From positions 17,352-81,351 of IMG/VR virus record IMGVR_UViG_3300037193_001894: a DNA stretch of 64,000 nucleotides, one strand, 5' to 3'. This document shows positions 5,247 through 64,000 of this stretch, in pieces. The notes beneath the pieces are model-generated. The model was not told the DNA's origin. It worked only from the letters and a program-made list of their open reading frames with translations, and made no database searches. The DNA comes from a virus. The position numbers and the translations under genes are program-made. How positions within the stretch are numbered: position 1 is the stretch's first letter; each line of letters begins with the position of its first letter.

Positions 5247-6557
5247 CTAGTCCCCCACCGTGATCTCGTGCCGGACACGGTACGAGCCGTGCTCGGGATC
5301 CCAGATGATCTGCCAGTTCTTGATGTCCTCGCGGCGGGCAGCGAGGATCTGGAACTTCGCCACCTTGTTGATCCGCTCGGCCTGGTTCTGGTGCAGGGCG
5401 AACACCCAGTTCGCGGCCCGCTCGACACCGGCCGACTCCGCGAGGTGCTGCATCTCGTGGTAGTCCTGCTTCTTCGCGGCCTCCATGCCAGCCCGGTTGA
5501 TCTGGTGGGCCAGCAGCAGCGCGATCGGGTCCCGGCCGTCCTTGATCAGGTCGGACAACTCGTGGACGTTCTCGTTGAACAACTCGTGCCGGGGCTTGCG
5601 TCCGGGGTTCGGGTGCTCGACGTGGGTCAACTGGTCGATGGCCACCCGCTGCACCCCGAGCATCTTCGCCTCGCGGATCATCATCTCCGGGGTCCTGGAG
5701 CCACGCGGCGGGGCGATGATGTGCAACTGCCCCGGCATGTCGGGGAGCACCTCGTGGATGAACTTGCGGACCTGCTGGACCTGCTCCTCGTCCACGGTGC
5801 CGCGCTGCCAGTGCCGAGGGTTGATCCCCAGGTGCAGGCACACGATCCGGTCCAGGGTCATCTCGACCGAGTTCTCCAGGGTGAACAGGCAGAAGTCGTT
5901 GCCCTGCTCGGCCCACTCGAACTTGGCCACCCGGTCCAGGAAGTAGGACTTGCCGACCTTGGGGCCTGCGGCGACCACCGCCATCTCCCCGGGGTGCACC
6001 CCGCCCGTGTGCTCGTCGATCTGCGGCAGCCCGAAGGTGATGCCCTTGGTGGCCGAGCCCTCCTCGACGCGGCGCTCGTACGCGGCCAGCGCGGTGGTGA
6101 ACCCCTCGGAGGCGAGAGCCCGGTTCGACCGGTCCTGGAGCCGGGCGCTGACGGTGAACAACTCGTTGGTGACCTCGGCCAGCATCTCCACCTTGGTGGT
6201 GACCGGGGCCTGGGCCATCCGGGTGCTGGCGTCCTTGATGAAGGTCTGCCACTCCCGGCCCGCGTAGAGGTCCTTGAGGCTGTCGATCGCGGACTCGATC
6301 GTGTCGATCTCGATGTCCTCGTCGGGGAGTTCGACCTCCTCCTCCTCCAGCGTCTCGCCCCAGGTGGCCAGGAGGAACTCCCGGCTGGGGGCCTGCCGAC
6401 GGCCGGAGTCGAAGTAGTAGTCCAGTGCCCAGGCGACCATCGGCCGCAGCGGCTCGGTGGGCACGCACTCCAGGTCGAGCCCGCGACGGGCCAGGGTCTC
6501 CAGGGCGTCGATGTCGCTCAGGCTGGCGTAGAGCACATCCTCGGAGTGGGTGGTCAT
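5247..6557 (-). CDS. dnaB: DnaB-like replicative helicase
   Basis: Walker A AGPKVGKS, FTLEN, IDQL, HQINR, LAESAGVERAAN; start ATG 6557. Confidence 0.9.
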   Translation of the reverse strand: MTTHSEDVLYASLSDIDALETLARRGLDLECVPTEPLRPMVAWALDYYFDSGRRQAPSREFLLATWGETLEEEEVELPDEDIEIDTIESAIDSLKDLYAGREWQTFIKDASTRMAQAPVTTKVEMLAEVTNELFTVSARLQDRSNRALASEGFTTALAAYERRVEEGSATKGITFGLPQIDEHTGGVHPGEMAVVAAGPKVGKSYFLDRVAKFEWAEQGNDFCLFTLENSVEMTLDRIVCLHLGINPRHWQRGTVDEEQVQQVRKFIHEVLPDMPGQLHIIAPPRGSRTPEMMIREAKMLGVQRVAIDQLTHVEHPNPGRKPRHELFNENVHELSDLIKDGRDPIALLLAHQINRAGMEAAKKQDYHEMQHLAESAGVERAANWVFALHQNQAERINKVAKFQILAARREDIKNWQIIWDPEHGSYRVRHEITVGD

Positions 6558-7369
6558 CCCAGGGCCACCGGTCGGGAGATGTTGTTGAGCGCGTCGCTCT
6601 TGGCGCGCTCGCGCACCCGGATGCGGAAGGACTCCCCGGTGACCTCGTGGTCCAGGCACGCCTCGGCCAGCAGGCTCATCACTGCCCCGCCGTAGCCGGA
6701 GTTCATCTCGTCCATGGAGTAGTTGGTCGTGATGATCGTCGGCCGGGAGTTGGCCACCCGGGACCTGATCACGGTGTCGAAGATCGAGCCAGCGAGTTCG
6801 ACCTTGCCCTTGTACTCCTTGCCCACGTCGTCCACCACGAGCACCCCGGCGTTGGTCACGCGGCGGACGAACCACTCGCGCTCCTCGGCGCTGTGCCAGC
6901 CTGCGGTGTAGGCGTCGAGCATCTCGTTGAACTGGGTGAAGTAGCCGTCGTGCCCGAACGCGATCAGCGACTTGAGCAGCAGGGTCGCCAGCATCGTCTT
7001 GCCGGTGCCCGACTGCTTCCCGAGGAGGATGAAGCCCAGCCCCGCGCTGGTGTAGGCCTTGGCGTTCTCGCCGTACTCCACGATCGCGTTGACGACCGCC
7101 TTGGGGACCTGGCTGTCCACGTCCTGCCAGGTGAGCCGCTGGTACTTCAACCCGACGCCGCAGTGGCGCAGGTGGCAGTACAGCAGCCACTGGCTGGGGC
7201 AGTCGCACTCCGTCTCACCCTCGGGGGAGATGAAGACCTTCTCGCCCTTGCAGGTGATGCACGAGGCGTAGGGGTCCCGCCACAGGTCGGGGTGGCGTCT
7301 GCGGAGCCGGTCGAAGTCGGCGTCAGGCAGCGGCTTGATATGCGACGGCAGGGGCGGCAAGGTCAGCAT
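6554..7369 (-). CDS. DnaC/IstB-like AAA+ helicase loader
   Basis: N-terminal CxxC..CxC, Walker A SGTGKT, Walker B LVVDDVGKE, TIITTN. Confidence 0.88.
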   Translation of the reverse strand: MLTLPPLPSHIKPLPDADFDRLRRRHPDLWRDPYASCITCKGEKVFISPEGETECDCPSQWLLYCHLRHCGVGLKYQRLTWQDVDSQVPKAVVNAIVEYGENAKAYTSAGLGFILLGKQSGTGKTMLATLLLKSLIAFGHDGYFTQFNEMLDAYTAGWHSAEEREWFVRRVTNAGVLVVDDVGKEYKGKVELAGSIFDTVIRSRVANSRPTIITTNYSMDEMNSGYGGAVMSLLAEACLDHEVTGESFRIRVRERAKSDALNNISRPVALG

Positions 7370-7414
7370 GGCTCTCCCGGAGTGCTGATGGTCGGTCGGA
7401 CGCTCTGGCGGGCG

Positions 7415-7822
7415 TCAGGACAGGTTGTCGGCGATGGGTTGTGCGAAGTAGGGGTCGGAGCCCTTGCAGAAGCGGTTCACGGAGATCGGGGCGTTGCGCC
7501 ACATCCCGCCATGGACCTGGAACGCGGCCCTGGAGATGGCGACGGCCTTCTCGATCCCCCAGCGCGAGATGAAGCCCTTGAAGATCCCGGCCTCCTTCTT
7601 CGGGTCCCGCACCTGGGGACCATGCGCCGCCTCGATCTCTCCGACCACGTAGTCCCGCAGGTCCGACCAGTTCCACATGGCCTCGGGCTTGGCCAAGAAG
7701 CCCCGCTGGTCGCTCGCCGGGATCACGGTGACCCGTTCCTCCACCTGGGGGACCGGAGTCGATCGGGTGATCACTCGCCGGGTGGACTGTGCGGTGTCGA
7801 GGTCATTGTCGAAGTCGAGCAT
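7415..7822 (-). CDS. Hypothetical protein upstream of helicase loader (possible initiator or accessory factor)
   Basis: AAGGAG RBS, GC3 bias; function inferred from position only. Confidence 0.7.
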   Translation of the reverse strand: MLDFDNDLDTAQSTRRVITRSTPVPQVEERVTVIPASDQRGFLAKPEAMWNWSDLRDYVVGEIEAAHGPQVRDPKKEAGIFKGFISRWGIEKAVAISRAAFQVHGGMWRNAPISVNRFCKGSDPYFAQPIADNLS

Positions 7823-7852
7823 GGTCGGGCAACTCCTTGGAGAGGTCGTAAC

Positions 7853-8191
7853 TCAGCGGGTGGTCTGATCGTTGCGCAGGAGGGTCTCCCAGAACGGAGT
7901 CCCGATCTTCTCGACGGCCGTGCGCACCAGGGAGTGCTCGGCGGCGAGAAGGGAGGTTGAGGAGATGAGGATCAGGTCGGCCCGGCCCTTGTGGACCATG
8001 GCGACGGTGATCGGCTCGTCGGTCTGGCTCGCGCCCCACTCGGTGACGGGCACGGGGGTGGCGACCAGCCAGTGGTAGTCGTCGAGCCCCACGATGTAAC
8101 CGGCCACCTCGTGGTACGGCTGACTGCCGAGGAACCGGAAGGTGACCTTGCGGCCCTTCAACGCAGCATGGGTGATCTGCTTGTTCGACAT
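7853..8191 (-). CDS. Hypothetical protein (small beta-barrel-like)
   Basis: GC3-biased coding from ATG 8191; alternative start at 8287. Confidence 0.65.
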   Translation of the reverse strand: MSNKQITHAALKGRKVTFRFLGSQPYHEVAGYIVGLDDYHWLVATPVPVTEWGASQTDEPITVAMVHKGRADLILISSTSLLAAEHSLVRTAVEKIGTPFWETLLRNDQTTR

Positions 8192-8372
8192 GGAGGAGCC
8201 GAGACGACCCCGGGGTGCGAGCGCGCCTCGCGGGCTTTCCGTCACCGTTCCCCCGCTCACACTGCCTCCACCGAAAGAGAGCCCCATCCCACTCTTGGAC
8301 CAGGAAGGGCGGGATGGGGCACGCAGTGGGCCTCACCTCGTCTGGCGAACCGAGGGGGTTGTAGGTCAAGTC

Positions 8373-8432
8373 GGTCGATTCAAGTGAATCGACCCAGATC
8401 ACACAGTAGGACCCGGTAACGACGGAGGTCAA
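8373..8432 (-). promoter_or_regulatory. Sigma70/HrdB-like promoter of the replication operon with a palindrome at the transcription start
   Basis: TTGACC-18 nt-TACTGT on the minus strand (8432-8403), followed by perfect IR GGTCGATTCA-AG-TGAATCGACC (8373-8394). Confidence 0.65.
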
Positions 8433-8563
8433 GCACTTCGTGGAGAACCGTGTTCGGCGTGTCGTGGTAACCGATTGAAACGGTACCGGCGAGGCTCTGC
8501 ACGGTTCGGAAGTCCGTGCCCGAGAGAAGGTCTGCTGCCCCGAATCCAGAACGGAAGATAGCA

Positions 8564-8606
8564 GAAAAGAAGGACCCACCGAGCGCGACACGCCCGGTGG
8601 GTCCTT
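8564..8606 (-). terminator. Rho-independent terminator
   Basis: AAGGACCCACCG...CGGTGGGTCCTT stem followed by CTTTT on the minus strand. Confidence 0.8.
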
Positions 8607-8613
8607 GGCTAGA

Positions 8614-8853
8614 TCAAGAAGTTGGCTGAACGGCGGCTTTCTTCTGACCAGACGGCTGCTTGCGCCTCCGCCGAAGGGTCTTGACCTCAGTCCCCTCGGG
8701 CGGCAAGAACGGCGCGATGCACTTGGCGCAGAGATCTTTGTGCACCTCCCCCGAGAGCACACTCCCCTCGAATCTCTGCACCAGCCGCTGCCGCTGCGAA
8801 GCGTTGATCACCGCTCCGCAGCCATCACACTGGTAACCCCGGAACGCACTCAT
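8614..8853 (-). CDS. Small zinc-finger protein with basic tail
   Basis: CDGC...DLCAKC; ATGA overlap at 8850-8853. Confidence 0.75.
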   Translation of the reverse strand: MSAFRGYQCDGCGAVINASQRQRLVQRFEGSVLSGEVHKDLCAKCIAPFLPPEGTEVKTLRRRRKQPSGQKKAAVQPTS

Positions 8854-9737
8854 ACCGGCGTCCCCTCCTTCCACAAACCCCCCACATAGAGCCTCTGCCG
8901 AACCGACTCCAGTCGGTAGCGAGTCAGGAACGACAACAGGCCCTCGTACATCGCGCTGGATGGGTCGGTCGGCTCGAACATGGGGAGTTCCGGTAGCGCG
9001 AGACCTTCCGGGGGAGTCCTTAGATCGACCAGCCGCAACGCGACTTGCACCTGCCCCCAGTGTTCTCTAACGGCAGGGTGCTCTACAGCATCCAGGCTCC
9101 ACCCGGACTTCGCAAGATTTTTCAATGCTGTCTTCATCCCGAACCGGGGGACGCCCGGCACACCGTCGGAGATGTCACCGGCCAGGGCCATCGCCAGGGC
9201 CAGATGCTCGGGCTCGCAGCCGTGCTCCTCGCGCACCCGCTGCACGGTCCACCGGTCGGTGTCGGCCCCGCCCGAGGACAGCCGGACCTGCTCCACCTCG
9301 TCGCACAGCAACTGGAGGAAGTCCTTGTCGCTGGAGAGGATCACCGCCCTCTCGCCAGCGGGGCGGTGGTGGACGTACCAGGAGATCAGGTCGTCGGCCT
9401 CGAAGCCCGGCCGGTCGATCTGGTGGATCCCCGACAGCGCCAGGAACTCCCGGGCCAGCGCGAAGGTGCCGCGCTTGCGCTCGTCGAACTCGGGGTCGGG
9501 GGCCTGGAGCCGGTTGGCCTTGTACTCGGGGTAGAGGGCCACCCGGAACGCCGAGCGGCCTCCGTCCCAGCAGACCACCAGCCGGTCCGGGTCCTCCTCG
9601 CGCACGTGCCGCGAGAGGGTGTTGATGAACACCATCAGCGGCCCGGTGTTCACGCCGTCGGCGGACAGAGAGGTGCGGGCCATAGCGTGTACGGCCCGCA
9701 TGGCGAGGTTGTTCCCATCCACGACGAGAGTAGTCAC
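8850..9737 (-). CDS. 5'-3' exonuclease / flap endonuclease (PolA N-terminal-like)
   Basis: LVVDGNN, WDG, YPEYKANR, EADD, SSDKDFLQL, LAGDISDGVPGV. Confidence 0.95.
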   Translation of the reverse strand: MTTLVVDGNNLAMRAVHAMARTSLSADGVNTGPLMVFINTLSRHVREEDPDRLVVCWDGGRSAFRVALYPEYKANRLQAPDPEFDERKRGTFALAREFLALSGIHQIDRPGFEADDLISWYVHHRPAGERAVILSSDKDFLQLLCDEVEQVRLSSGGADTDRWTVQRVREEHGCEPEHLALAMALAGDISDGVPGVPRFGMKTALKNLAKSGWSLDAVEHPAVREHWGQVQVALRLVDLRTPPEGLALPELPMFEPTDPSSAMYEGLLSFLTRYRLESVRQRLYVGGLWKEGTPV

Positions 9738-9741
9738 GTCA

Positions 9742-10275
9742 TCACTCGCCCATCCCGTCCAGGCGCTGGGCGGTGACCCAGCCCATGATCCGGTCCACTG
9801 CGACCTCGGCCATGTCGGTGTGGTCGGCGGTCTCGAACCAGTGCGGGTGCTCGTCCTCGGCCTTCTCCAGCGCCTTGCTGACCTCAGCGACCAAGGTGTC
9901 CCGGTCGGCGTCGTGCATCCGCAGGATCGAGCGGGCGTAGACCAGGCCGTCCAACTGCTCCTCGTACCAGTCCCGGACGGTGTTGCGCCCGTTGAAGGGC
10001 CGGTGGCCCTGGCGGTAGCGCTGGATGCCGACCTGGCGGCGCTCCTCGATGTCGCGGATCAGCAGGGTCTGGTCGTCCTCCAGGGACTCGTCTCCGTCCG
10101 GCAGCACCTGGTCGCCGGGACGGGTCCGCAACGCCTCACCCTCCTCCGAGTCAGTCCAGAGCCAGTCTCCACCGCTCTGCCGATAGACCCGGCCGCACTC
10201 GCGGCAGGTCAACTCGGGAGAGTCGGGGTTCAAGGGGAAGACCCCGGGGTGGGTGCAGGCTTCGGGGCGCTTCAT
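9742..10275 (-). CDS. Hypothetical protein, possible all-alpha NTP pyrophosphatase (MazG-like) domain
   Basis: N-terminal C/H..CxxC; GIQRY...DWYEEQLDGLVY has an EExxD helix. Confidence 0.5.
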   Translation of the reverse strand: MKRPEACTHPGVFPLNPDSPELTCRECGRVYRQSGGDWLWTDSEEGEALRTRPGDQVLPDGDESLEDDQTLLIRDIEERRQVGIQRYRQGHRPFNGRNTVRDWYEEQLDGLVYARSILRMHDADRDTLVAEVSKALEKAEDEHPHWFETADHTDMAEVAVDRIMGWVTAQRLDGMGE

Positions 10276-10464
10276 CGGAACGTCACCTCGCCCTTCTGGG
10301 CCTCGACCTCGGTGCGCAGCGAGCGCCAGCCCAGCAGGTTGCCGATCCTGGGGAGGTGGCCGAGCGAGATGCTGCCCTTGCTGACCGGCACCGGCTCATG
10401 CCTCGACCAACTCGGCCAGGTGGAGCCTGCGGAGGGTCTCGCGGCCGAGCGGCTGCTCGCTCAC
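10272..10464 (-). pseudogene. Small ORF apparently broken by a frameshift near 10400
   Basis: GTG 10464 gives SEQPLGRETLRRLHLAELVEA*; a GC3-rich frame with no obvious start continues HEPVPVSKGSISLGHLPRIGNLLGWRSLRTEVEAQKGEVTFR* and ends in an ATGA overlap at 10272. Confidence 0.45.
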
Positions 10465-10700
10465 AGGCCCTCCACCTTGATCCGCTGCACCATGCCGTCG
10501 GGCAGCCGTCGGCGAGCGGTTCCGTCGCTGCCCACGTCGGAGGCCGTGACCAACTCGAAGTTGTGGATCGCGTCGGCCCGGTCCGGGTGGCTCTCGGTGT
10601 CCTTCGCCAGCGGCTCGCCGTTGTCGCCGTAGAACGTCCAGTACCACTGCCGGGGCGAGTTCGGGTCGCCCTCGTTGCTGTCTCGGAATCTGACTCTCAT
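10461..10700 (-). CDS. DUF1508/YegP-like small protein
   Basis: WYWTFYGDNGEPLAKDTESHPDRADAIHN motif; ATG 10700 with GAGGAGG RBS. Confidence 0.6.
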   Translation of the reverse strand: MRVRFRDSNEGDPNSPRQWYWTFYGDNGEPLAKDTESHPDRADAIHNFELVTASDVGSDGTARRRLPDGMVQRIKVEGL

Positions 10701-11009
10701 GACCCCTCCTCGGGATCCGGGGCGTCGGCGGTGACCTCGATCAGTTCCGCGTCCCCGGCGTTGATGTGGATGACCGCCTCCGGCTGGAGCGGCAGCAGAG
10801 CGTTGGCGTCGATCCGCAGGGTGAGCCTGGTGACCAGGGCTCCGGCCTTGGTCTTGCCGGTGGGCTTCTTCTGGGTGAGGTTGGTGACCTTGCCCCCCCC
10901 TCAGGATGGGCCGGTCCTTGCTGTCGATGTCGTAGCGGTACGAGGACCAGACCGGCTCGATCGTGGCGTAGAACACCGCATCGACGTACTCGGGCTGCTT
11001 GCTGGTCAT
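10697..11009 (-). CDS. Hypothetical protein with frameshift at a G8 tract (10893-10900)
   Basis: With one fewer G it reads ...PILRGGKVTNLTQKKP...TRLTLRIDANALLPLQPEAVIHI...EEGS*, with normal GC3 and ATGA coupling. Confidence 0.65.
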
Positions 11010-17095: not shown

Positions 17096-17856
17096 GAGGC
17101 CTCCAGGGCTCGGGCGGTGGCCAGCGCGTGGGTGCGGGGCTTGGAGCCGGACGGCCCGAACCGTCCCGCCTTGACGTTGGCCCGGATCGCCTCCGCCGCC
17201 TGGTGCCGGGCGGTGTAGCCGACCAGCCTGCGCTGCGCGGCCTCGCGCTGGCTCTCGGCCTGGGCCTTCTCCTGGCGCTTGGCGGCAGCGGCCTGCCGGG
17301 ACCGCTCGGCCTGGGTGACCACCGGATGCCCGGGCTTCGGCACGTCGGCCATGGTGTACCGGACCCGCTTGGCCTTGAACGAGGCCCGCAGGGTGTCGGC
17401 GTGCGTCTTGCCCATCTGGTAGCGGACCAGGGTGAGCAGCACCCCGGCGAACTCCGGCCCGTGGTGGGCGTGGTGGTAGCCGGTCAGGCAGTGCGCGATC
17501 TCGTGGAGGATCACCACCTCGCTGCGGCGGTGGACCTGGCTGACGGTGATCTCGCCGTACGCCCCGTGCGAGCCCCGGCCCGCGACCACGGTGATCTTGC
17601 GTCGCCCCCAGCGGGACTGGAACCAGGCGGCGCTGGTCACGGCGTCCACGTAGGCCTGGGTGGCGGCGACGGTCGGGCACTTCATCTGGACGGACTTGCC
17701 GTCCTCGATGACTCCCCATCCGGCGACGTGCTGGGTGTCCACGAGGTGCTTGGTCGCCGTCCGGCTGACCCGGAGGTCCCTGATCGCGTCCTCGGCGTCG
17801 TAGAGCCGCTGGCGCTGGTTGTCCCGGGCCTGGCCGGGGCGCAGTGCGTTCGGCAT
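17092..17856 (-). CDS. HExxH zinc metallohydrolase (SprT/TIGR04338-like)
   Basis: RDNQRQRLYDAE, VILHEIAHCL, HGPEFAG. Confidence 0.8.
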   Translation of the reverse strand: MPNALRPGQARDNQRQRLYDAEDAIRDLRVSRTATKHLVDTQHVAGWGVIEDGKSVQMKCPTVAATQAYVDAVTSAAWFQSRWGRRKITVVAGRGSHGAYGEITVSQVHRRSEVVILHEIAHCLTGYHHAHHGPEFAGVLLTLVRYQMGKTHADTLRASFKAKRVRYTMADVPKPGHPVVTQAERSRQAAAAKRQEKAQAESQREAAQRRLVGYTARHQAAEAIRANVKAGRFGPSGSKPRTHALATARALEAS

Positions 17857-17857
17857 C

Positions 17858-18160
17858 TCAGAGCAGCCCCTTCGCGTTCGCGATCCGGGTGACCTCGGTC
17901 TTCTGGGTCGGGTAGGCCGTGAAGGGCTTCAAGTGCCGGTTCGCCTCCAGGGTCTTCTCCCAGCCCGCGAGGGCCTCCCACTCCACGAGGTGGATCCGGT
18001 AGGCGGCACCCCGGACGTTCTTGACCTTCTCGACCCGGGCGACGGTGACGGTTGCCATCTGTCCCCCGAACGGGTCGAAGGTGCGGCGCTGGAGCCGATC
18101 GCCGGGCTCCAGGTCCCGGGGGATCACCCGGGTCGTGTACTCGAATGTCTCGTCCGTCAT
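17858..18160 (-). CDS. Hypothetical protein
   Basis: ATG 18160 with GGGAG RBS; GC3 bias. Confidence 0.7.
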   Translation of the reverse strand: MTDETFEYTTRVIPRDLEPGDRLQRRTFDPFGGQMATVTVARVEKVKNVRGAAYRIHLVEWEALAGWEKTLEANRHLKPFTAYPTQKTEVTRIANAKGLL

Positions 18161-18224: not shown

Positions 18225-18243
18225 ATCTTACCACATTCCTTGG
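18225..18243 (-). promoter_or_regulatory. Extended -10 promoter with CCAAGGAAT box
   Basis: Minus strand CCAAGGAATGTGG-TAAGAT. Confidence 0.5.
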
Positions 18244-59226: not shown

Positions 59227-60306
59227 TCAGAGAGGCGTGGCCGCAGCCGAGGTCTTGGAGATGCCGCTGCCCGCCTCGTTGGTCGGGGTGACCGTGACGG
59301 TGACCGCGACGCCCGAGTCCAGCCCGGTGAGCAGCGCCGTGAGCACGTCGCCGACCACAGCCTCCTCACCGGAGGAGGCCCTGACCACGAAGCCGTCCGC
59401 GTCGCCCCAGGTCGGGGCCGTCCAGTCCACGTCGAGTTGCCCCGCGACTCCGGTGGCCGCAGCCGTGACGGAGCCGACCGGGCCGGTGGTGCCGCCCGTG
59501 CCCGCCTTGACCTCGCCCCGGGCGTTGTAGATCGGGTTGACCCGGTTCTCCGGGGTGACGGTGGTCGGGTGGCCCGGACCGGCCTGGTCGGGGTTGAGCG
59601 GGGTGACGGCATCGGACCAGTCGGAGTAGTCGCCCACCCCGTTGTCGTTGACCGCCGCGACCCGGAACTTGTAGGCCTGGCTCGGGGTCAGGTTGTTGAC
59701 GAACTTGCTGGTGGCGTTGCGCCCGGCGAAGGCCACGCCGGTCGTGGAGCCCTCGACCCGGTAGCCCCGGATCGGAGCCCCGGCCGGGTCCGCCACGGCC
59801 ACCCAGGTCACCGTGGCACCCCGTGCACCGGCCGCGACGGTCGGCTTGGCGGGAGTGCCCGGCATGTTCGCCGTGGTCGTCTGGAGGGCGACCTTGGGGT
59901 TCTGGGTGTCGAGGTTCTCCGACTGCCACTGGTTGGACTGGTCGATCTCCACGCCATCGCTGACGGGGCGGTCGGTCCAGGTGGTGTCCACGTTGCTCGC
60001 GGACGGGTCCAGCGACGGCGGGCGGTAGGCCGGGTCGGCGTGGTTGGCCGGAGCGCCGGAGGACTGGGTGTCCGTCGTCCCCGTGAGGTACTGGGTGGGG
60101 TCGTCGGTGTGGTGCTCGTTCTCGCCCCCCTGCGCGCCGGTCGTGTCGGGCTGCGTGGCAGCCGAGTTGCTCGGGTCGTCCACACCTCCACCACCCGTGA
60201 CGGTGGTGTCGCGGTTCGAGGCCCGGTCAGCGGTAGACGTGCCGGTGCCCCCGCCGCTGACTGCGGTGGTGTCGCGAGTGCCGGACTCAGTTGGTGTCTC
60301 GGACAT
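59227..60306 (-). CDS. Fibronectin type III domain protein (capsid decoration candidate)
   Basis: ATVTW...PIRGYRV...LTPSQAYKFRVAAVND.G.G; second Fn3 repeat; disordered N-terminus. Confidence 0.8.
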   Translation of the reverse strand: MSETPTESGTRDTTAVSGGGTGTSTADRASNRDTTVTGGGGVDDPSNSAATQPDTTGAQGGENEHHTDDPTQYLTGTTDTQSSGAPANHADPAYRPPSLDPSASNVDTTWTDRPVSDGVEIDQSNQWQSENLDTQNPKVALQTTTANMPGTPAKPTVAAGARGATVTWVAVADPAGAPIRGYRVEGSTTGVAFAGRNATSKFVNNLTPSQAYKFRVAAVNDNGVGDYSDWSDAVTPLNPDQAGPGHPTTVTPENRVNPIYNARGEVKAGTGGTTGPVGSVTAAATGVAGQLDVDWTAPTWGDADGFVVRASSGEEAVVGDVLTALLTGLDSGVAVTVTVTPTNEAGSGISKTSAAATPL

Positions 60307-60349: not shown

Positions 60350-61009
60350 TTACTTCTTGTACTCGACGATGCCCTTGCGAGCCTGGCCCTTCTTCTCGGC
60401 CGCGACGATGCGCTTGAACTCCTTGTCGTCGGCCTTGTCCAACTCCTTCTGGACCTCGGGCACGGTGTGCTCGTCGGGGTTGTAGGACCCCTTCGAGGAC
60501 GAGCCCTTCGAGCCACCGTCGCCGTCGCCGGAGCCGCCGTCGCCGCTCTCGTTGACGGCGTGCGGGACCTCGCCGCTCTGCGCCTTCGGGTCGTTGTCCT
60601 TGGCGGTCGTGGCCGCGTCGAGCGCGTCCTCGCCCTCCTCGGTGCCGCTGCGCTCACGGAGCGTCTCGGCTGCCTGCTGGCGCTCGGCGTCGTCGGAGAC
60701 CTCCGGGTACGCCCCGTCGTTCTCCTCCAGGTCCGTGGCCGCACGGGCGTCGGCGGCGTTGAAGGTGTCGGTGACGTTGCGCAGGTCCTCGTGCGGGCCG
60801 GGACCCACGTCGGAGGTGTCCAGCGTGCCGGTCATCGCCGTGGGGTCGGGGGTGGCCCCGGACTCCTCGTTGTAGACGCCGGTCGCCTCGGACGAGGGGA
60901 TGACGTTCTCCCCCGCCTTGGGGCTGTCCGAGGCCTGCCCGGACTCCTGCTCGTTCCCGGCCGTGTTCTGGTCCTGGTACGAGCCCTTGTTGTTGGCGGT
61001 GATGCCCAT
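60350..61009 (-). CDS. Acidic low-complexity protein with small C-terminal helical domain
   Basis: D/E/S/G-rich; YNPDEHTVPEV...AEKKGQARKGIV. Confidence 0.75.
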   Translation of the reverse strand: MGITANNKGSYQDQNTAGNEQESGQASDSPKAGENVIPSSEATGVYNEESGATPDPTAMTGTLDTSDVGPGPHEDLRNVTDTFNAADARAATDLEENDGAYPEVSDDAERQQAAETLRERSGTEEGEDALDAATTAKDNDPKAQSGEVPHAVNESGDGGSGDGDGGSKGSSSKGSYNPDEHTVPEVQKELDKADDKEFKRIVAAEKKGQARKGIVEYKK

Positions 61010-61040
61010 GAGTCGTGCTCCTTACTGTGGGGGTGGGAGG

Positions 61041-61586
61041 TTACTGCTGCTGCCGCTCGGGGGTCCCCATGGTGACGCGGACCCACTTGCGCACACTGCT
61101 TGTACCCTCTTGCTCCTCGGAGGGAACGTACTGCGATGCCAGCGCCTGGTGCTGCTGGCACAGCGGCGGGTGGTCGTTCTTGGTCTGCTCCCGCACCGGA
61201 ACGTCTGCCCCGCAGCGGCCCTGACCTCGGCTGTCCGGCCCCACACAGGGCATCGAGATCACGTCGTTCTGGGCCACGTCGTCGATGCTGGCGAGGGCCT
61301 GCTGAGCCGCTCCCGAGGAACGCTTCTCGAAGGCCTCTCGCTGACGCAGGACAGCCTGGTCGAACACCTCCTCCAGCGAGGCGTCCATCTTCTCGATGAT
61401 CCCTCTCTGGAGCAGCCGGATGAACGGCACGGAGTTCGCGATGGACTCGGGCACGATCTGGATGTCGCCGCCTGCGGGGTCGCCCGACGGCTGCCACTCC
61501 ACGTACTCTGAGCCCTTGGCATCTGAGGACAGCACGACCACCTGCTTCTTGGTGTTCCGTGCCGCCACCTGCGTCGTCAACTGCAT
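61041..61586 (-). CDS. Hypothetical head-region protein with C-terminal C..C..C..H zinc site
   Basis: ATG 61586 with GGAGG RBS. Confidence 0.75.
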   Translation of the reverse strand: MQLTTQVAARNTKKQVVVLSSDAKGSEYVEWQPSGDPAGGDIQIVPESIANSVPFIRLLQRGIIEKMDASLEEVFDQAVLRQREAFEKRSSGAAQQALASIDDVAQNDVISMPCVGPDSRGQGRCGADVPVREQTKNDHPPLCQQHQALASQYVPSEEQEGTSSVRKWVRVTMGTPERQQQ

Positions 61587-61650
61587 GAGAGCCTCCAAGG
61601 CTGATCGGGGGAACTTGGGTGTTCCACCCCTTCACCGGGCTCAGGAACGC

Positions 61651-61854
61651 TCAGACAGCAGGCCGGACCAGCGCGAGCACGTCGTCGAGGTCCACGCTGG
61701 TGGTGGGCTCCCAGTACCCACGGGCTGCGATCGAGGCCACCGACTGAGGCGGGTACAGCCTGCGCTCGCTCGTGTCGGCGATCTGACCGGTCCCGTCGGG
61801 GTGCTCGATCAGGAACCGGTTCGGCCCCTGCTGGGCGATGACCTTCCCCTGCAT
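61651..61854 (-). CDS. Nested in-frame 67-aa ORF (candidate inhibitor/immunity protein)
   Basis: TAGGAGGAGCC-ATG at 61854 preceded by a -10-like TACGCT in a locally AT-richer segment. Confidence 0.55.
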   Translation of the reverse strand: MQGKVIAQQGPNRFLIEHPDGTGQIADTSERRLYPPQSVASIAARGYWEPTTSVDLDDVLALVRPAV

Positions 61855-63003
61855 GGCTCCTCCTAGGATGCGCTCTAAGTTTCCTTGGTAGCGTACCGCA
61901 TTCCGCAGGAAGTGGTCCTTGACATCGAGGGGCACCCCCGAGTGGGGGTGGTCCGTGTGCACCCAGGGGACCCCCTTGTCGTTGAGGTGCTCCTTGAGCC
62001 GCTCCACCGCAGCCTCGTGGCGACCGCCGCGCAGCACCGCGTAGTGCAGGTCGTGCAGGCTGACGCCGCCGTGGAACTGGGCCTCGGTGTAGTCGCCGAA
62101 CCCGCGATCCCGGTCCAGGTGGTGGTCCTTGTGGATCTGGATCCTGTGCGCGGCGTCCCGCTCCGGGGTGTTGCGCTCATACTCGTCGAGGTCGGTGTTC
62201 CACTTCGACCGCAGCGGGATGGCGTGCTCGTTGAACGCCTGCACCGGCTGGGGGCGGACGTGCATGTGGTTGTTCAGCGAGTCCCCCACGCAGGCGGTCG
62301 TCCGGTGCCACACCACCGGCTTCTTGAGCACCAGCAGGTGCCTGCCGTAGTGGTGGGCCAGGGTGTTGCGCAGCGGGTGGTGGGCCAGGATCCCGTACAC
62401 GGGCCTGGCGTGGCTGGGATGGTCCGGAGGGTGCCCGTCCTCGGGCTCGGCGCTGTCGGAGTCGTAGCCCATCATCGTGGCGGTCTCGTGCCACTCCCTG
62501 CCCGCCTCGCTGGGGTAGCCGAAGTGCATGTGCTCGACCCCGGCCCGGGTCTCCTCGTGCAGCATCCCGTTGGAGGTGCCGGACTCGAACTGCGACTTGT
62601 AGCGGCCGTCGTGGAGCACGCTGCCGAGCACGTGGGTGTCCACCGCGATGCAGGGGGTCCCCCGGGAGACGTGGTGCTTGATCCGATCGACCATCTTCGT
62701 GAACCGGTGGTAGTTGTCCCCGTCGTCCAGCCCGTCGTGGTGATCCCACGACCAGTCCATGTCGTAGCCGCTGCCGAAGCCTCCGTCCAGGAACGGGTTG
62801 TGGTGCGTCCCGGCCAGGCTCCCCCAGACGTTGGGGTTGCTCCGCTCGTGGTAGAGCGGGTGGCCCGGGCGGGTCCCCTCTGGCGGCAGCAGGCTGTGCC
62901 CCGGCATCCCGGGCAGCGACGGCTGGCCAGGGTCCTGCGTCCCGAACCCGTAGTGGTCCAGGATCTTCGGCGGCTTCCACCCGCGCAGTTCGTCCTTCGG
63001 CAT
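61651..63003 (-). CDS. DUF3626-like putative ADP-ribosyltransferase-fold protein, His-rich, with a separable C-terminal domain
   Basis: GRYKSQFESGTS.G, R...E...FG, RPVYG, HYG..L.LK, RTT...GDS, YTEAQFHGGV motifs; ATG 63003 with GGAGG RBS. Confidence 0.7.
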   Translation of the reverse strand: MPKDELRGWKPPKILDHYGFGTQDPGQPSLPGMPGHSLLPPEGTRPGHPLYHERSNPNVWGSLAGTHHNPFLDGGFGSGYDMDWSWDHHDGLDDGDNYHRFTKMVDRIKHHVSRGTPCIAVDTHVLGSVLHDGRYKSQFESGTSNGMLHEETRAGVEHMHFGYPSEAGREWHETATMMGYDSDSAEPEDGHPPDHPSHARPVYGILAHHPLRNTLAHHYGRHLLVLKKPVVWHRTTACVGDSLNNHMHVRPQPVQAFNEHAIPLRSKWNTDLDEYERNTPERDAAHRIQIHKDHHLDRDRGFGDYTEAQFHGGVSLHDLHYAVLRGGRHEAAVERLKEHLNDKGVPWVHTDHPHSGVPLDVKDHFLRNAVRYQGNLERILGGAMQGKVIAQQGPNRFLIEHPDGTGQIADTSERRLYPPQSVASIAARGYWEPTTSVDLDDVLALVRPAV

Positions 63004-63048
63004 CCGCCACCTCCATCCCTTCGCAGTTCCGGGGCTCGCCGGGACAGC

Positions 63049-63085
63049 AGAACCCCCGGCCTGCACGAGGCGGGCCGGGGGTTCT
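63049..63085 (-). terminator. Hairpin/terminator after major capsid gene
   Basis: AGAACCCCCGGCC/GGCCGGGGGTTCT inverted repeat. Confidence 0.7.
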
Positions 63086-63103
63086 TGTGGGTGCGCTGGA
63101 GGA

Positions 63104-64000
63104 TCAGACCTTGGTGATGGTCGCGATGCCCCGGGGGTTGAGGATGGCCATGGAGACCATCTCGTCGAAGACCCAGCCCTTCCAGAACGCCTCCACCATG
63201 TGGTTCTCCTCCACGTCGAGCGAGTAGAGAACCGGGAAGACGCCGAGGAAGTTGGGCTCCGGCGTGAGGAACACCTTGCCCTGCGGCACGATGATCGAGC
63301 GCTGGATCTGGAACTCGCCGAACGACGTGATGGTCTCACCAGCGACCACACGGTCCTTGAACGCCCAGCCGGTCTGGTTGATGTCCCACCGGTAGAGGTC
63401 GCGGAAGTCGAACGGGTTGATCAGGATCCGGGCCGACTGCAACTCGTGCAGGTCGGTCATCGCCACGGCGCTGTAGAGGGAGCCCGGCGTGAGGTAGCCC
63501 GAGGCCTCCAGGATGTCGTGGTTGGGGGTGACCGTGTGGTCGGGACGGGTGGCGTAGTCCTCGACGGCTGCCTGGAGCAGCACCAGGAGGCGCGAGTCCT
63601 CCTGCTTGAGGATGGCCTGCTTGGTCTCGTCCTGGGCCTGCTCGACCGCGTTGATGCGGAGGTAGAACAGGTCCTCCTTGCGGATCGCCGGACGCGAGGC
63701 GATGCGGAAGAACCGCACCGGGACGCGCTTGCCCTCGAACGGGGTCACGCGGACCTCGCCCTCGGTGCCCGACATGATGTAGGCCTGACCGAGGTCGTCC
63801 CACACGTCGTACTCGACCGGGGTGCCCGGCGTCACCGGGTCCTCGATCAGGACGTTGCGCGTGATGCCCTGGTAGCGCAACTTGAGTTGGATGGGACCGA
63901 CCATGCCGACGCCGAGGCGCTTGATGCCGTTCACCTCGTCCTGGAGGACGAGCGCCATCTTGCGGACCTTGGCCTCGTGGGTGAGTCCGGCACCCCCCTC
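63104..64000 (-). CDS. Major capsid protein (HK97 fold; 5' end outside window)
   Basis: Frame open to window edge; PIQLKLRYQGITRNVL, AILKQED, VPQGKVFL, ILNPRGIATITKV; very strong codon bias; followed by terminator. Confidence 0.85.
   Translation of the reverse strand, partial: EGGAGLTHEAKVRKMALVLQDEVNGIKRLGVGMVGPIQLKLRYQGITRNVLIEDPVTPGTPVEYDVWDDLGQAYIMSGTEGEVRVTPFEGKRVPVRFFRIASRPAIRKEDLFYLRINAVEQAQDETKQAILKQEDSRLLVLLQAAVEDYATRPDHTVTPNHDILEASGYLTPGSLYSAVAMTDLHELQSARILINPFDFRDLYRWDINQTGWAFKDRVVAGETITSFGEFQIQRSIIVPQGKVFLTPEPNFLGVFPVLYSLDVEENHMVEAFWKGWVFDEMVSMAILNPRGIATITKV

Follow-up and report, generated by a model that had tools for sequence, protein, structure and literature searches.

A SopF-family ADP-ribosyltransferase with an in-frame candidate inhibitor domain next to the capsid gene of a viral contig

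Which protein is encoded directly behind the major capsid gene of the IMG/VR virus record IMGVR_UViG_3300037193_001894, and why do its last 67 residues look like a gene of their own? The window analysed here, a stretch of 64,000 nucleotides (positions 17,352 to 81,351 of the record), is the terminal part of an 81,351-base contig with an estimated completeness of about 55%. An initial annotation, made from the letters alone, had proposed that the minus-strand gene at 61651-63003 encodes a virion-packaged ADP-ribosyltransferase (ART) with an attached inhibitor, the latter being additionally expressed from a promoter inside the gene. The observation was partly confirmed and the interpretation is partly supported. 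Our comparative analysis documents that an ART-fold enzyme of the SopF/DUF3626 family makes up the N-terminal part, as judged from sequence profiles and the predicted structure, and that the tail, here termed the ARGYW domain, is encoded by a separate gene in most related loci. The explanation that we favor, with a probability of roughly 0.55, is a late-made SopF-type ART that forms one chain with its cognate partner. This partner most likely blocks the site for nicotinamide adenine dinucleotide (NAD), and extra free partner would be made from a retained internal start.

The gene represents a single open frame of 450 amino acids (aa) that runs from the ATG at 63003 to the stop codon at 61651-61653, and this start is consistent with the N-termini of the homologues. 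Residues 124-342 match Pfam PF12294 (DUF3626) with 40.3 bits against a cut-off of 27 (E 2.5e-10), and a search of the whole record agrees. DUF3626 is the domain of the Salmonella effector SopF (PMC6682159), whose activity is lost on mutating Y224 or Y240, the nicotinamide contacts, or E325, which contacts the ribose (PMC11937434; the residue identities were fixed from the mutagenesis primers of that study). A profile of 17 full-length homologues matches the sequence of the SopF crystal 7dn8 (E 7.5e-4) and places the segments RPiY, YGe and YtEAq opposite RPIY, AYGK and YIEAH of SopF. The three SopF residues align with Y203, Y219 and E307, all of which are invariant in the 17 homologues. The AlphaFold model (predicted local distance difference test, pLDDT, 78) finds 7dn8_A as its best Foldseek match (E 2.1e-4, probability 1.00), and the structure comparison with VIA returned SopF with a Z of 12.1 (233 residues aligned, root-mean-square deviation 4.6) and further DarT (Z 8.8), Tpt1 (7.6) and CopC/OspC3 (7.4), which are all ART-fold enzymes. 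The ART assignment of the initial annotation is correct because the Pfam hit, the profile match to 7dn8, the conserved NAD-contact residues and the SopF-best fold match all point to it. No match at E 1e-3 was obtained for the protein in a tblastn search of 50,697 GenBank phage records.

Two peculiarities of the enzyme part deserve mention. Its N-terminal extension has a pLDDT below 50 at residues 17-35, and a motif resembling its conserved NPxVWGxLA...HNPF was recognized by eye between the MuF and ART domains of the loci L007 and L038. The reported abundance of histidine, about 42 in the first 380 residues and one in the tail, is exact (42 in residues 1-383, one in 384-450). The His content amounts to 7.5-10% in all 17 fused homologues versus 1.0-1.4% in neighboring phage proteins, and only 12 of the 43 His positions of the window protein are occupied by His in at least half of the homologues. 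In the alignment the His richness is kept as composition and not as sites; metal binding or a pH response is possible.

The tail is fused in all 17 close homologues, with G-Y-W invariant inside the A-R-G-Y-W segment, and it folds alone in the AlphaFold2 prediction (pLDDT 93.8). It has no family match in Pfam, PHROGs or NCBIfam, and the comparison with solved structures yielded nothing convincing (best Foldseek E 1.4, VIA-wide best Z 4.2). The Tas1 immunity protein (6ox6_B) reached a Z of 4.0, which lies within the noise, and it was not used as evidence. We collected 80 IMG/VR loci via the DUF3626 (ART) domain, 57 of which are matched by an ARGYW hidden Markov model, nearly all on the same strand and just downstream. 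In these loci the ART module often forms the C-terminal end of head-internal proteins, in which Pfam recognizes Phage_Mu_F (L007 and L076), Phage_min_cap2 (L020) or VG15 (L072). There, ARGYW is a separate open reading frame (ORF) of 63-90 aa in another frame that starts within a few bases of the toxin stop, and stand-alone ARGYW genes carry their own Shine-Dalgarno (SD) sites. The reverse search with a DNA pattern for LARGYWE recovered 25 true ARGYW loci. An ART is located directly upstream in 19 of them, and the upstream DNA of four of the other six is cut off at the end of the locus or contig. An exhaustive profile search retrieved 744 ARGYW cluster representatives. Stand-alone proteins of 63-110 aa form the majority of the best 150, next to a minority with ARGYW fused at the C-terminus, on proteins of 400-470 aa, and a few N-terminal fusions. 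Whether homologues encode the tail as a separate downstream gene had been posed as a check at the outset, and it is answered positively by the 57 DUF3626 loci, the 19 reverse loci and the split locus L087 described below. Judged from these gene arrangements, the 67-aa tail is a separate module, the partner of the ART, which most phages encode as a small gene directly downstream.

The N-terminal fusions comprise ARGYW-NUDIX (P0125), ARGYW-DUF3626 in reverse order (P0078, P0161) and ARGYW-ADPrib_exo_Tox (L048, 2256-3053; Pfam E 4e-25 for the toxin family). ARGYW furthermore heads a protein with two ART-like R-S-E repeats in L055 (6642-9038; by eye), a protein with a RelA/SpoT-like tail in L046 (5037-5948; by eye and without a Pfam match) and a protein with DUF5872 in L056 (6690-7352; below the cut-off). 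These longer ARGYW-headed proteins of L048, L055, L046 and L056 are all encoded directly downstream of DUF3626 genes. A repeat architecture was observed in L044 (1-6816), whose open frame of more than 2,271 codons runs off the locus and harbors at least four SopF-type ART repeats, recognizable by the recurring motif pair KSQFE/KTVFD ... YxE[AT]QIHGG. By eye, it also contains an exonuclease-like stretch, and a separate ARGYW gene follows next. Short Gly-rich inter-module motifs recur in L055 (5674-9038; GNYGHxGRPGLVGGSGKG) and L016 (3859-6660; KHLPGKHDQKxH), likewise identified by eye, and they may represent processing or linker sites of multi-module head proteins.

A split organization is found in a locus of the same gene order. 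L087 (1801-4306) occupies the same syntenic locus and contains two ART units, duplicated inside one 742-codon frame that ends in a stop. It is followed by an A/T-rich spacer with an SD site, a separate ARGYW-type gene with AHGHSAYW in place of ARGYW, and the homologue of the 185-aa ORF that lies downstream of the gene in the window. Given this A/T-rich spacer between the ART and ARGYW genes, the rare-codon linker of the window gene corresponds to an intergenic spacer elsewhere. The G+C content at third codon positions (GC3) is about 0.95 over the whole gene with the exception of codons 368-382, eight of which (8/15) end in A or T, including AAT, GTA, CAA, GGA, TTA and CTA. The codon TTA occurs three times in the 22,739 codons of the high-GC3 frames of the window; no tRNA genes were found within the window and hence no phage-borne tRNA for TTA. 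A stretch with 8 of 17 A/T-ending codons this deep in a gene is unusual, as most comparable clusters are located close to the start of a frame. The 3' end of the linker reads CTA GGA GGA GCC ATG with the ATG at 61854. In L004, a contig of 140 kb, two tandem ART-ARGYW paralogues and a third ARGYW-ending frame are found at 5479-10928.

The in-frame, A/T-richer linker of rare codons that had been described initially is thus present in one open frame. A read-level indel in GGAAAC had been named as the observation that could undo the fusion. Independently assembled Logan contigs from three runs of one study span or cover the linker with zero differences and zero indels, which shows the fusion to be real DNA and not an assembly slip. 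A programmed frameshift or a sequencing indel at this site, creating a TAG, was accordingly rejected, also in view of the 17 homologues that are fused in frame.

The locus is embedded in an otherwise conserved gene order. The succession of capsid gene, ART gene, orf185, orf219, the gene of a protein with fibronectin type III domains, orf213 and orf289 is kept in L005 and L003/L086 and partly in L083. The capsid protein is 91-95% identical where the ART shares only 36-37% (L005, L003), and it is 100% identical over its last 37 residues in L083. In the comparison with L005, L003/L086 and L083 the identities amount to 36-42% for the ART, 32-47% for orf185 and 55-61% for orf289. The ART locus therefore diverges far faster than its neighbors, and on these alignments it is a hypervariable island in a conserved head-tail module.

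How the two parts of the protein interact was addressed by complex modeling, which had been recommended as a check. The ART core (residues 96-366) and the tail (384-450) were submitted as separate chains with our own alignment in three runs. The predicted complex reaches an ipSAE score of 0.77 versus 0.01 for the best control and seats the tail on the NAD pocket. Of 80 solved complexes 58 attain this score, and of 110 mismatched pairs 2 do so; since the alignment was our own, these counts apply only roughly. Contacts agree to at least 83% among the three runs, and the pLDDT of the partner is at least 87. Confident contacts set residues I425-W431, including R428, G429 and Y430, against Y203, G204, H218, Y219 and the conserved segment 120-156. 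The contact surface on the ART core is the NAD pocket as defined by the SopF mutants. The model would be compatible with a C-terminal ARGYW domain that lies in cis over the active site of the N-terminal enzyme. As the ARGYW segment is predicted to lie on both nicotinamide-stacking tyrosines, the domain most likely holds the enzyme inactive.

The second question is whether the tail is also made as a free protein. An internal start at 61854 had been proposed, and TAGGAGGAGCC-ATG with the ATG at 61854-61852 is indeed present. Seven fused genes from IMG/VR and JGI loci were compared at the SD site and domain junction, a set to which the Logan-only homologues P0002 and P0004-P0008 do not belong. 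In each of the seven, an in-frame ATG (a GTG in L003) coincides in the alignment with the starts of stand-alone ARGYW genes, and a methionine is found at or beside the position of Met384 in most of the 17 homologues. All seven possess an SD-type purine run 3-7 nt before the start (GGAGGA, GGAGGG, AAGGAG, GGAGAGG, AAGGGGG twice, AGAGGAG), while the residues encoded at this site vary (LGGA, EGRG, GRSV, ERHA, KGAY, KGAH, RGAF). The SD:anti-SD energy of -10.2 kcal/mol in the window gene belongs to the top 2.7% of its positions, and the site ranks within the top 0.5-7.7% of positions in each of the seven fused genes. The region from -35 to +15 around the ATG is moreover the least-structured 50-nt window of a 1.46-kb region (-5.5 versus -15.1 +/- 3.8 kcal/mol), and the cluster of rare codons immediately precedes this start. 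Strength of the SD site, conservation and an unfolded mRNA segment thus speak for the proposed start, and the region has the features of a working translation initiation region, from which we infer its use. An extra, free partner of 7 kDa would probably arise by internal initiation on the same late mRNA, without a promoter of its own.

Taken together, we propose that a large actinobacterial phage would express an NAD-dependent ART of the SopF family from its block of late head genes. The last 67 residues of this ART would be the cognate partner, seated on the NAD+ cleft with the invariant Arg-Gly-Tyr-Trp against both nicotinamide-stacking tyrosines, so that the enzyme would be held off by a toxin-immunity pair in a single chain; that the partner inhibits at all is most likely, given the predicted interface. 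The former start region of the partner gene would survive inside the fused gene as a strong SD site, an ATG and an unfolded rare-codon stretch of the mRNA. Release of the enzyme could be achieved by cleavage in the disordered linker or by displacement through a host factor. A more far-reaching version can be advanced only tentatively, and we would sooner bet against it: the ARGYW proteins of hundreds of phage lineages might form an immunity family not yet described, which closes the NAD+ pocket of SopF-type ARTs. In the present actinophage lineage ARGYW would be welded into a switchable, virion-delivered effector, whose cis copy is silent during assembly, whose internal start gives surplus inhibitor in the producing cell, and whose release in the next host depends on linker cleavage or a host trigger.

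Several points weigh against the proposed self-inhibited enzyme with its nested start. A permanently fused inhibitor needs a release step, and no sign of one was found. ARGYW also heads toxin-type proteins (the ADPrib_exo_Tox protein of L048, the NUDIX protein P0125), for which a docking role fits equally well. The window protein has no MuF domain (PF04233), DUF3626 being the only one found by Pfam. The interface score expresses model confidence only, and both chains naturally form one polypeptide. The combined p of 3e-7 for the SD site overstates independence because the seven genes are related. The cluster of A/T-ending codons is strong (top 1% of windows) in only three of the seven fused genes, and the diverged paralogues of L004 are devoid of a clear internal start.

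The last two points would be expected if the internal SD site, the ATG and the rare codons were a relic of a two-gene fusion, or an inter-domain translational pause, and no separate 67-aa protein existed. L087 exemplifies the corresponding split state, of ancestral type, in which an A/T-rich spacer occupies this very position. This alternative is a serious one, albeit somewhat short of an even chance. It has to account for an SD-like run located 3-7 nt before an in-frame ATG or GTG in 7/7 genes that are only 35-42% identical to the window gene and whose amino acids change at the site, for the methionine retained by most homologues, and for the coincidence with the least-folded 50 nt of the mRNA. 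A neutral relic would furthermore be expected to decay towards the genome GC3 of about 0.9.

We assign a comparable weight, below that of the favored explanation, to an enzyme that is neither packaged nor injected. It would act late in the producing cell on host or phage proteins, with the C-terminal domain as a regulatory lid; ModA and ModB of phage T4 act inside the infected cell and provide a parallel. The window protein has no MuF, portal or other head-anchoring domain, and its position in a late operon tells about timing, not packaging. Since the MuF domain is missing, packaging is not implied by the architecture. The same ART module, including the N-terminal NPF motif, is however fused to head-internal proteins in many other phages, and the divergence of the locus far exceeds that of the adjacent head genes. 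Virion delivery is plausible, as suggested by the gene position behind the capsid gene and by the MuF and minor-capsid fusions of distant relatives.

In a third scenario, ARGYW is not an inhibitor but a docking or activating subunit, which might tether further cargo, such as toxins attached behind ARGYW, to a head-anchored ART or complete a substrate site, and the fusion is a two-subunit enzyme in one chain. The N-terminal position of ARGYW in longer proteins encoded directly downstream of DUF3626 genes (L048, L055, L046, L056) is in agreement with such a role, as are its fusions to NUDIX and, in reverse order, to DUF3626, and the paradox of a permanently fused inhibitor disappears. SopF itself needs a protein cofactor, as is evident from its crystal complex with ARF1 (7dn8/7dn9). 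SopF nevertheless has no need of an ARGYW domain to work, and MuF toxins classically have their immunity gene arranged in just this way, as a small gene behind the toxin domain (PMC5576092). The predicted interface covers the tyrosines of the NAD pocket, so that a bound partner would more probably block NAD. We regard docking or activation as unlikely.

The last alternative, promoted by the initial annotation, is a promoter in the linker that drives early, separate expression of the inhibitor. The underlying motifs exist. GGAATGCGGTACGCT is located at 61890-61904, with a TANNNT-type hexamer (TACGCT) about 36 nt upstream of the internal ATG, and it has 12 of 15 bases in common with a site at 18225-18239. 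The proposed box CCAAGGAAAC is present at 61879-61888 as well, but the meaning attached to it did not hold, as it shows no repeat above chance. The similarity of the linker to the site at 18225 is at chance level, since a pattern built from the two sites gave that one other match with 0.36 expected. GAAGGGATG at 63014-63022, taken for a structural-gene motif in front of the gene, occurs twice versus 0.42 expected, a number that is reached by 6 of 100 shuffles; the ATG inside it (63016-63014) belongs to another, 279-aa frame, and the true start is at 63003. A scan of 60900-63300 for sigma-70 promoters and terminators found nothing. The counterpart GGAATGTGGTAAGAT at 18225-18239 (minus strand) belongs to an intergenic stretch richer in A/T and precedes the ATG at 18159 by about 65 nt, with TGG immediately before TAAGAT, and it is a plausible extended -10 promoter for the gene at 18159, unlike its internal look-alike. 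With a hexamer that resembles this promoter-like site in its favor, and with a missing TGN extension, an empty sigma-70 scan, chance-level motifs and homologues that keep the SD site and start but not the upstream hexamer against it, the internal promoter and the early expression derived from it are very improbable.

The comparison with known systems places the favored arrangement between several established ones. SopF (PDB 7DN8, 7DN9) shares the Pfam family, the fold and the NAD-contact residues with the window ART at an identity of only about 15%. It is a secreted effector with a eukaryotic target and was crystallized with its host cofactor ARF1, whereas the window protein has a body rich in His and an N-terminal extension of another kind, and it carries an ARGYW domain that is absent from SopF. 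In temperate phages, MuF polymorphic toxins are followed by downstream immunity genes (PMC5576092), and Bsi binds Bxa, an ART of a Bacteroides stercoris prophage, thereby blocking ADP-ribosylation (PMC11699363). In both MuF toxins and the Bxa-Bsi-BAH system (PMC11699363) a toxin domain of the phage head module, an ART, is likewise succeeded by a small cognate protein, and distant relatives of the window ART are genuine MuF or minor-capsid fusions, behind which the ARGYW gene follows next. The window protein differs from MuF systems in the absence of MuF and in a partner that is encoded in cis and in frame, with no intervening stop or indel. The predicted placement of ARGYW fits an active-site-occluding partner, by analogy with Bsi for Bxa.

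The Alt protein of T4 resides in the phage head, enters the cell together with the injected DNA and modifies the host RNA polymerase and other proteins (PMC5512222). Like the window protein it is a late-made phage ART, and it may serve as a working model for delivery. Alt belongs to the R-S-E Alt/VIP2 clade and the window ART to the SopF clade; Pfam detects neither ADPrib_exo_Tox nor any other ART family besides DUF3626 in the window protein, whose best folds are SopF and DarT. We know of no fused inhibitor of T4 Alt. A precedent for a useful cis-fused inhibitor is CapRelSJ46, in which the C-terminal domain reportedly keeps an N-terminal toxic enzyme inactive until a trigger displaces it. CapRel is a bacterial defense with a RelA/SpoT-type toxin and is not known to have a nested internal start. 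For Tre1, an ART toxin of a type VI secretion system, the immunity protein Tri1 is said to occlude the active site, just as a small cognate protein is predicted over the ART active site here, and ARGYW-NUDIX recalls a bifunctional block-and-reverse immunity. Tre1-Tri1 represents another ART clade with another immunity fold, and it is bacterial and encoded by separate genes. The C/Nu3 pair of phage lambda is a nested in-frame gene of the head module, whose nested product is the scaffold; the window gene would similarly yield a second protein from an internal in-frame start in a late head-region gene, with the partner domain of the enzyme as candidate product.

SopF is known for its part in virulence, as an effector directed at eukaryotic cells. 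Judging from the present locus and its relatives, phages may be a large reservoir of this family, whose enzymes travel with a dedicated small partner of no described family. In a full-text literature search we found no paper describing the phage DUF3626 module or its partner family. The new elements contributed by this locus are a fusion in frame, an orthologue in the split state, a predicted interface and a nested start that is conserved. The fusion is a natural "Rosetta stone" and argues for a direct contact between enzyme and partner; it also provides a compact single-gene system for studying the silencing and activation of a phage ART. With its conserved nested start, the locus would represent a case of one gene with two products of opposed roles, and its very fast divergence beside a near-identical capsid gene makes it a candidate for a site of conflict between host and phage. 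If the partner is truly an inhibitor, ARGYW proteins could be employed as specific proteinaceous inhibitors in studies of SopF-type enzymes. The features of the locus are compiled in Table 1.

Table 1. Features of the ART-ARGYW gene and its immediate surroundings (positions in the window)
Feature	Position	Strand	Basis and remarks
Major capsid protein gene	63104..63958	-	directly upstream of the ART gene; phrog_2522 major head protein, E 1e-95
13-bp G+C-rich hairpin	63049..63085	-	between capsid stop codon and ART gene; RNA fold -41.6 kcal/mol, z -3.0; without U tract
GGAGG SD site of the true start	63010..63014	-	6-nt spacer to ATG 63003
Whole gene, 450-aa SopF-family ART with fused ARGYW domain	61651..63003	-	ORF and translation; 17 full-length homologues align end to end
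N-terminal extension, residues 1-99	62707..63003	-	partly disordered; conserved motif NPxVWGxLA...HNPF (alignment)
ART catalytic core, residues ~100-350 (DUF3626)	61954..62706	-	invariant Y203, Y219, E307; Pfam, profile, Foldseek, VIA
Inter-domain linker, residues 351-383	61855..61953	-	predicted disorder at 367-383 (pLDDT <50); length and sequence vary among homologues
Rare-codon, A/T-richer stretch, codons 368-383	61855..61902	-	includes TTA; corresponds to A/T-rich intergenic spacer of L087
Internal SD site GGAGGA, codons 381-382	61858..61863	-	3 nt before internal ATG
Internal in-frame ATG, Met384	61852..61854	-	candidate start of a free 67-aa ARGYW protein
ARGYW domain, residues 384-450	61654..61854	-	three-stranded beta meander and short helices; invariant G429-Y430-W431

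The ART-ARGYW gene is located within a minus-strand block of head and tail genes. The DNA of the capsid gene matches the major head or capsid genes of phages of Mycobacterium, Gordonia and Rhodococcus, and the source contig looks like a part of a large phage with a capsid gene like those of 136-165-kb actinobacteriophages. The hairpin between the capsid and ART genes is a possible attenuator that would limit read-through from the highly expressed capsid gene. On the other side of the ART gene, the downstream 185-aa ORF (61041-61598, minus strand) corresponds to phrog_2784 of unknown function and is kept as neighbor in L005, L003, L087 and L089. Its probable start is the ATG at 61586, which is preceded by GGAGG at a distance of five bases; the TTG chosen by the ORF finder is less likely. 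The same block encodes an acidic, low-complexity protein of 219 aa (60350-61009, minus strand) and a 359-aa protein with fibronectin type III domains (59227-60306, minus strand; Pfam E 1e-14), and both could be decoration or scaffold-type proteins.

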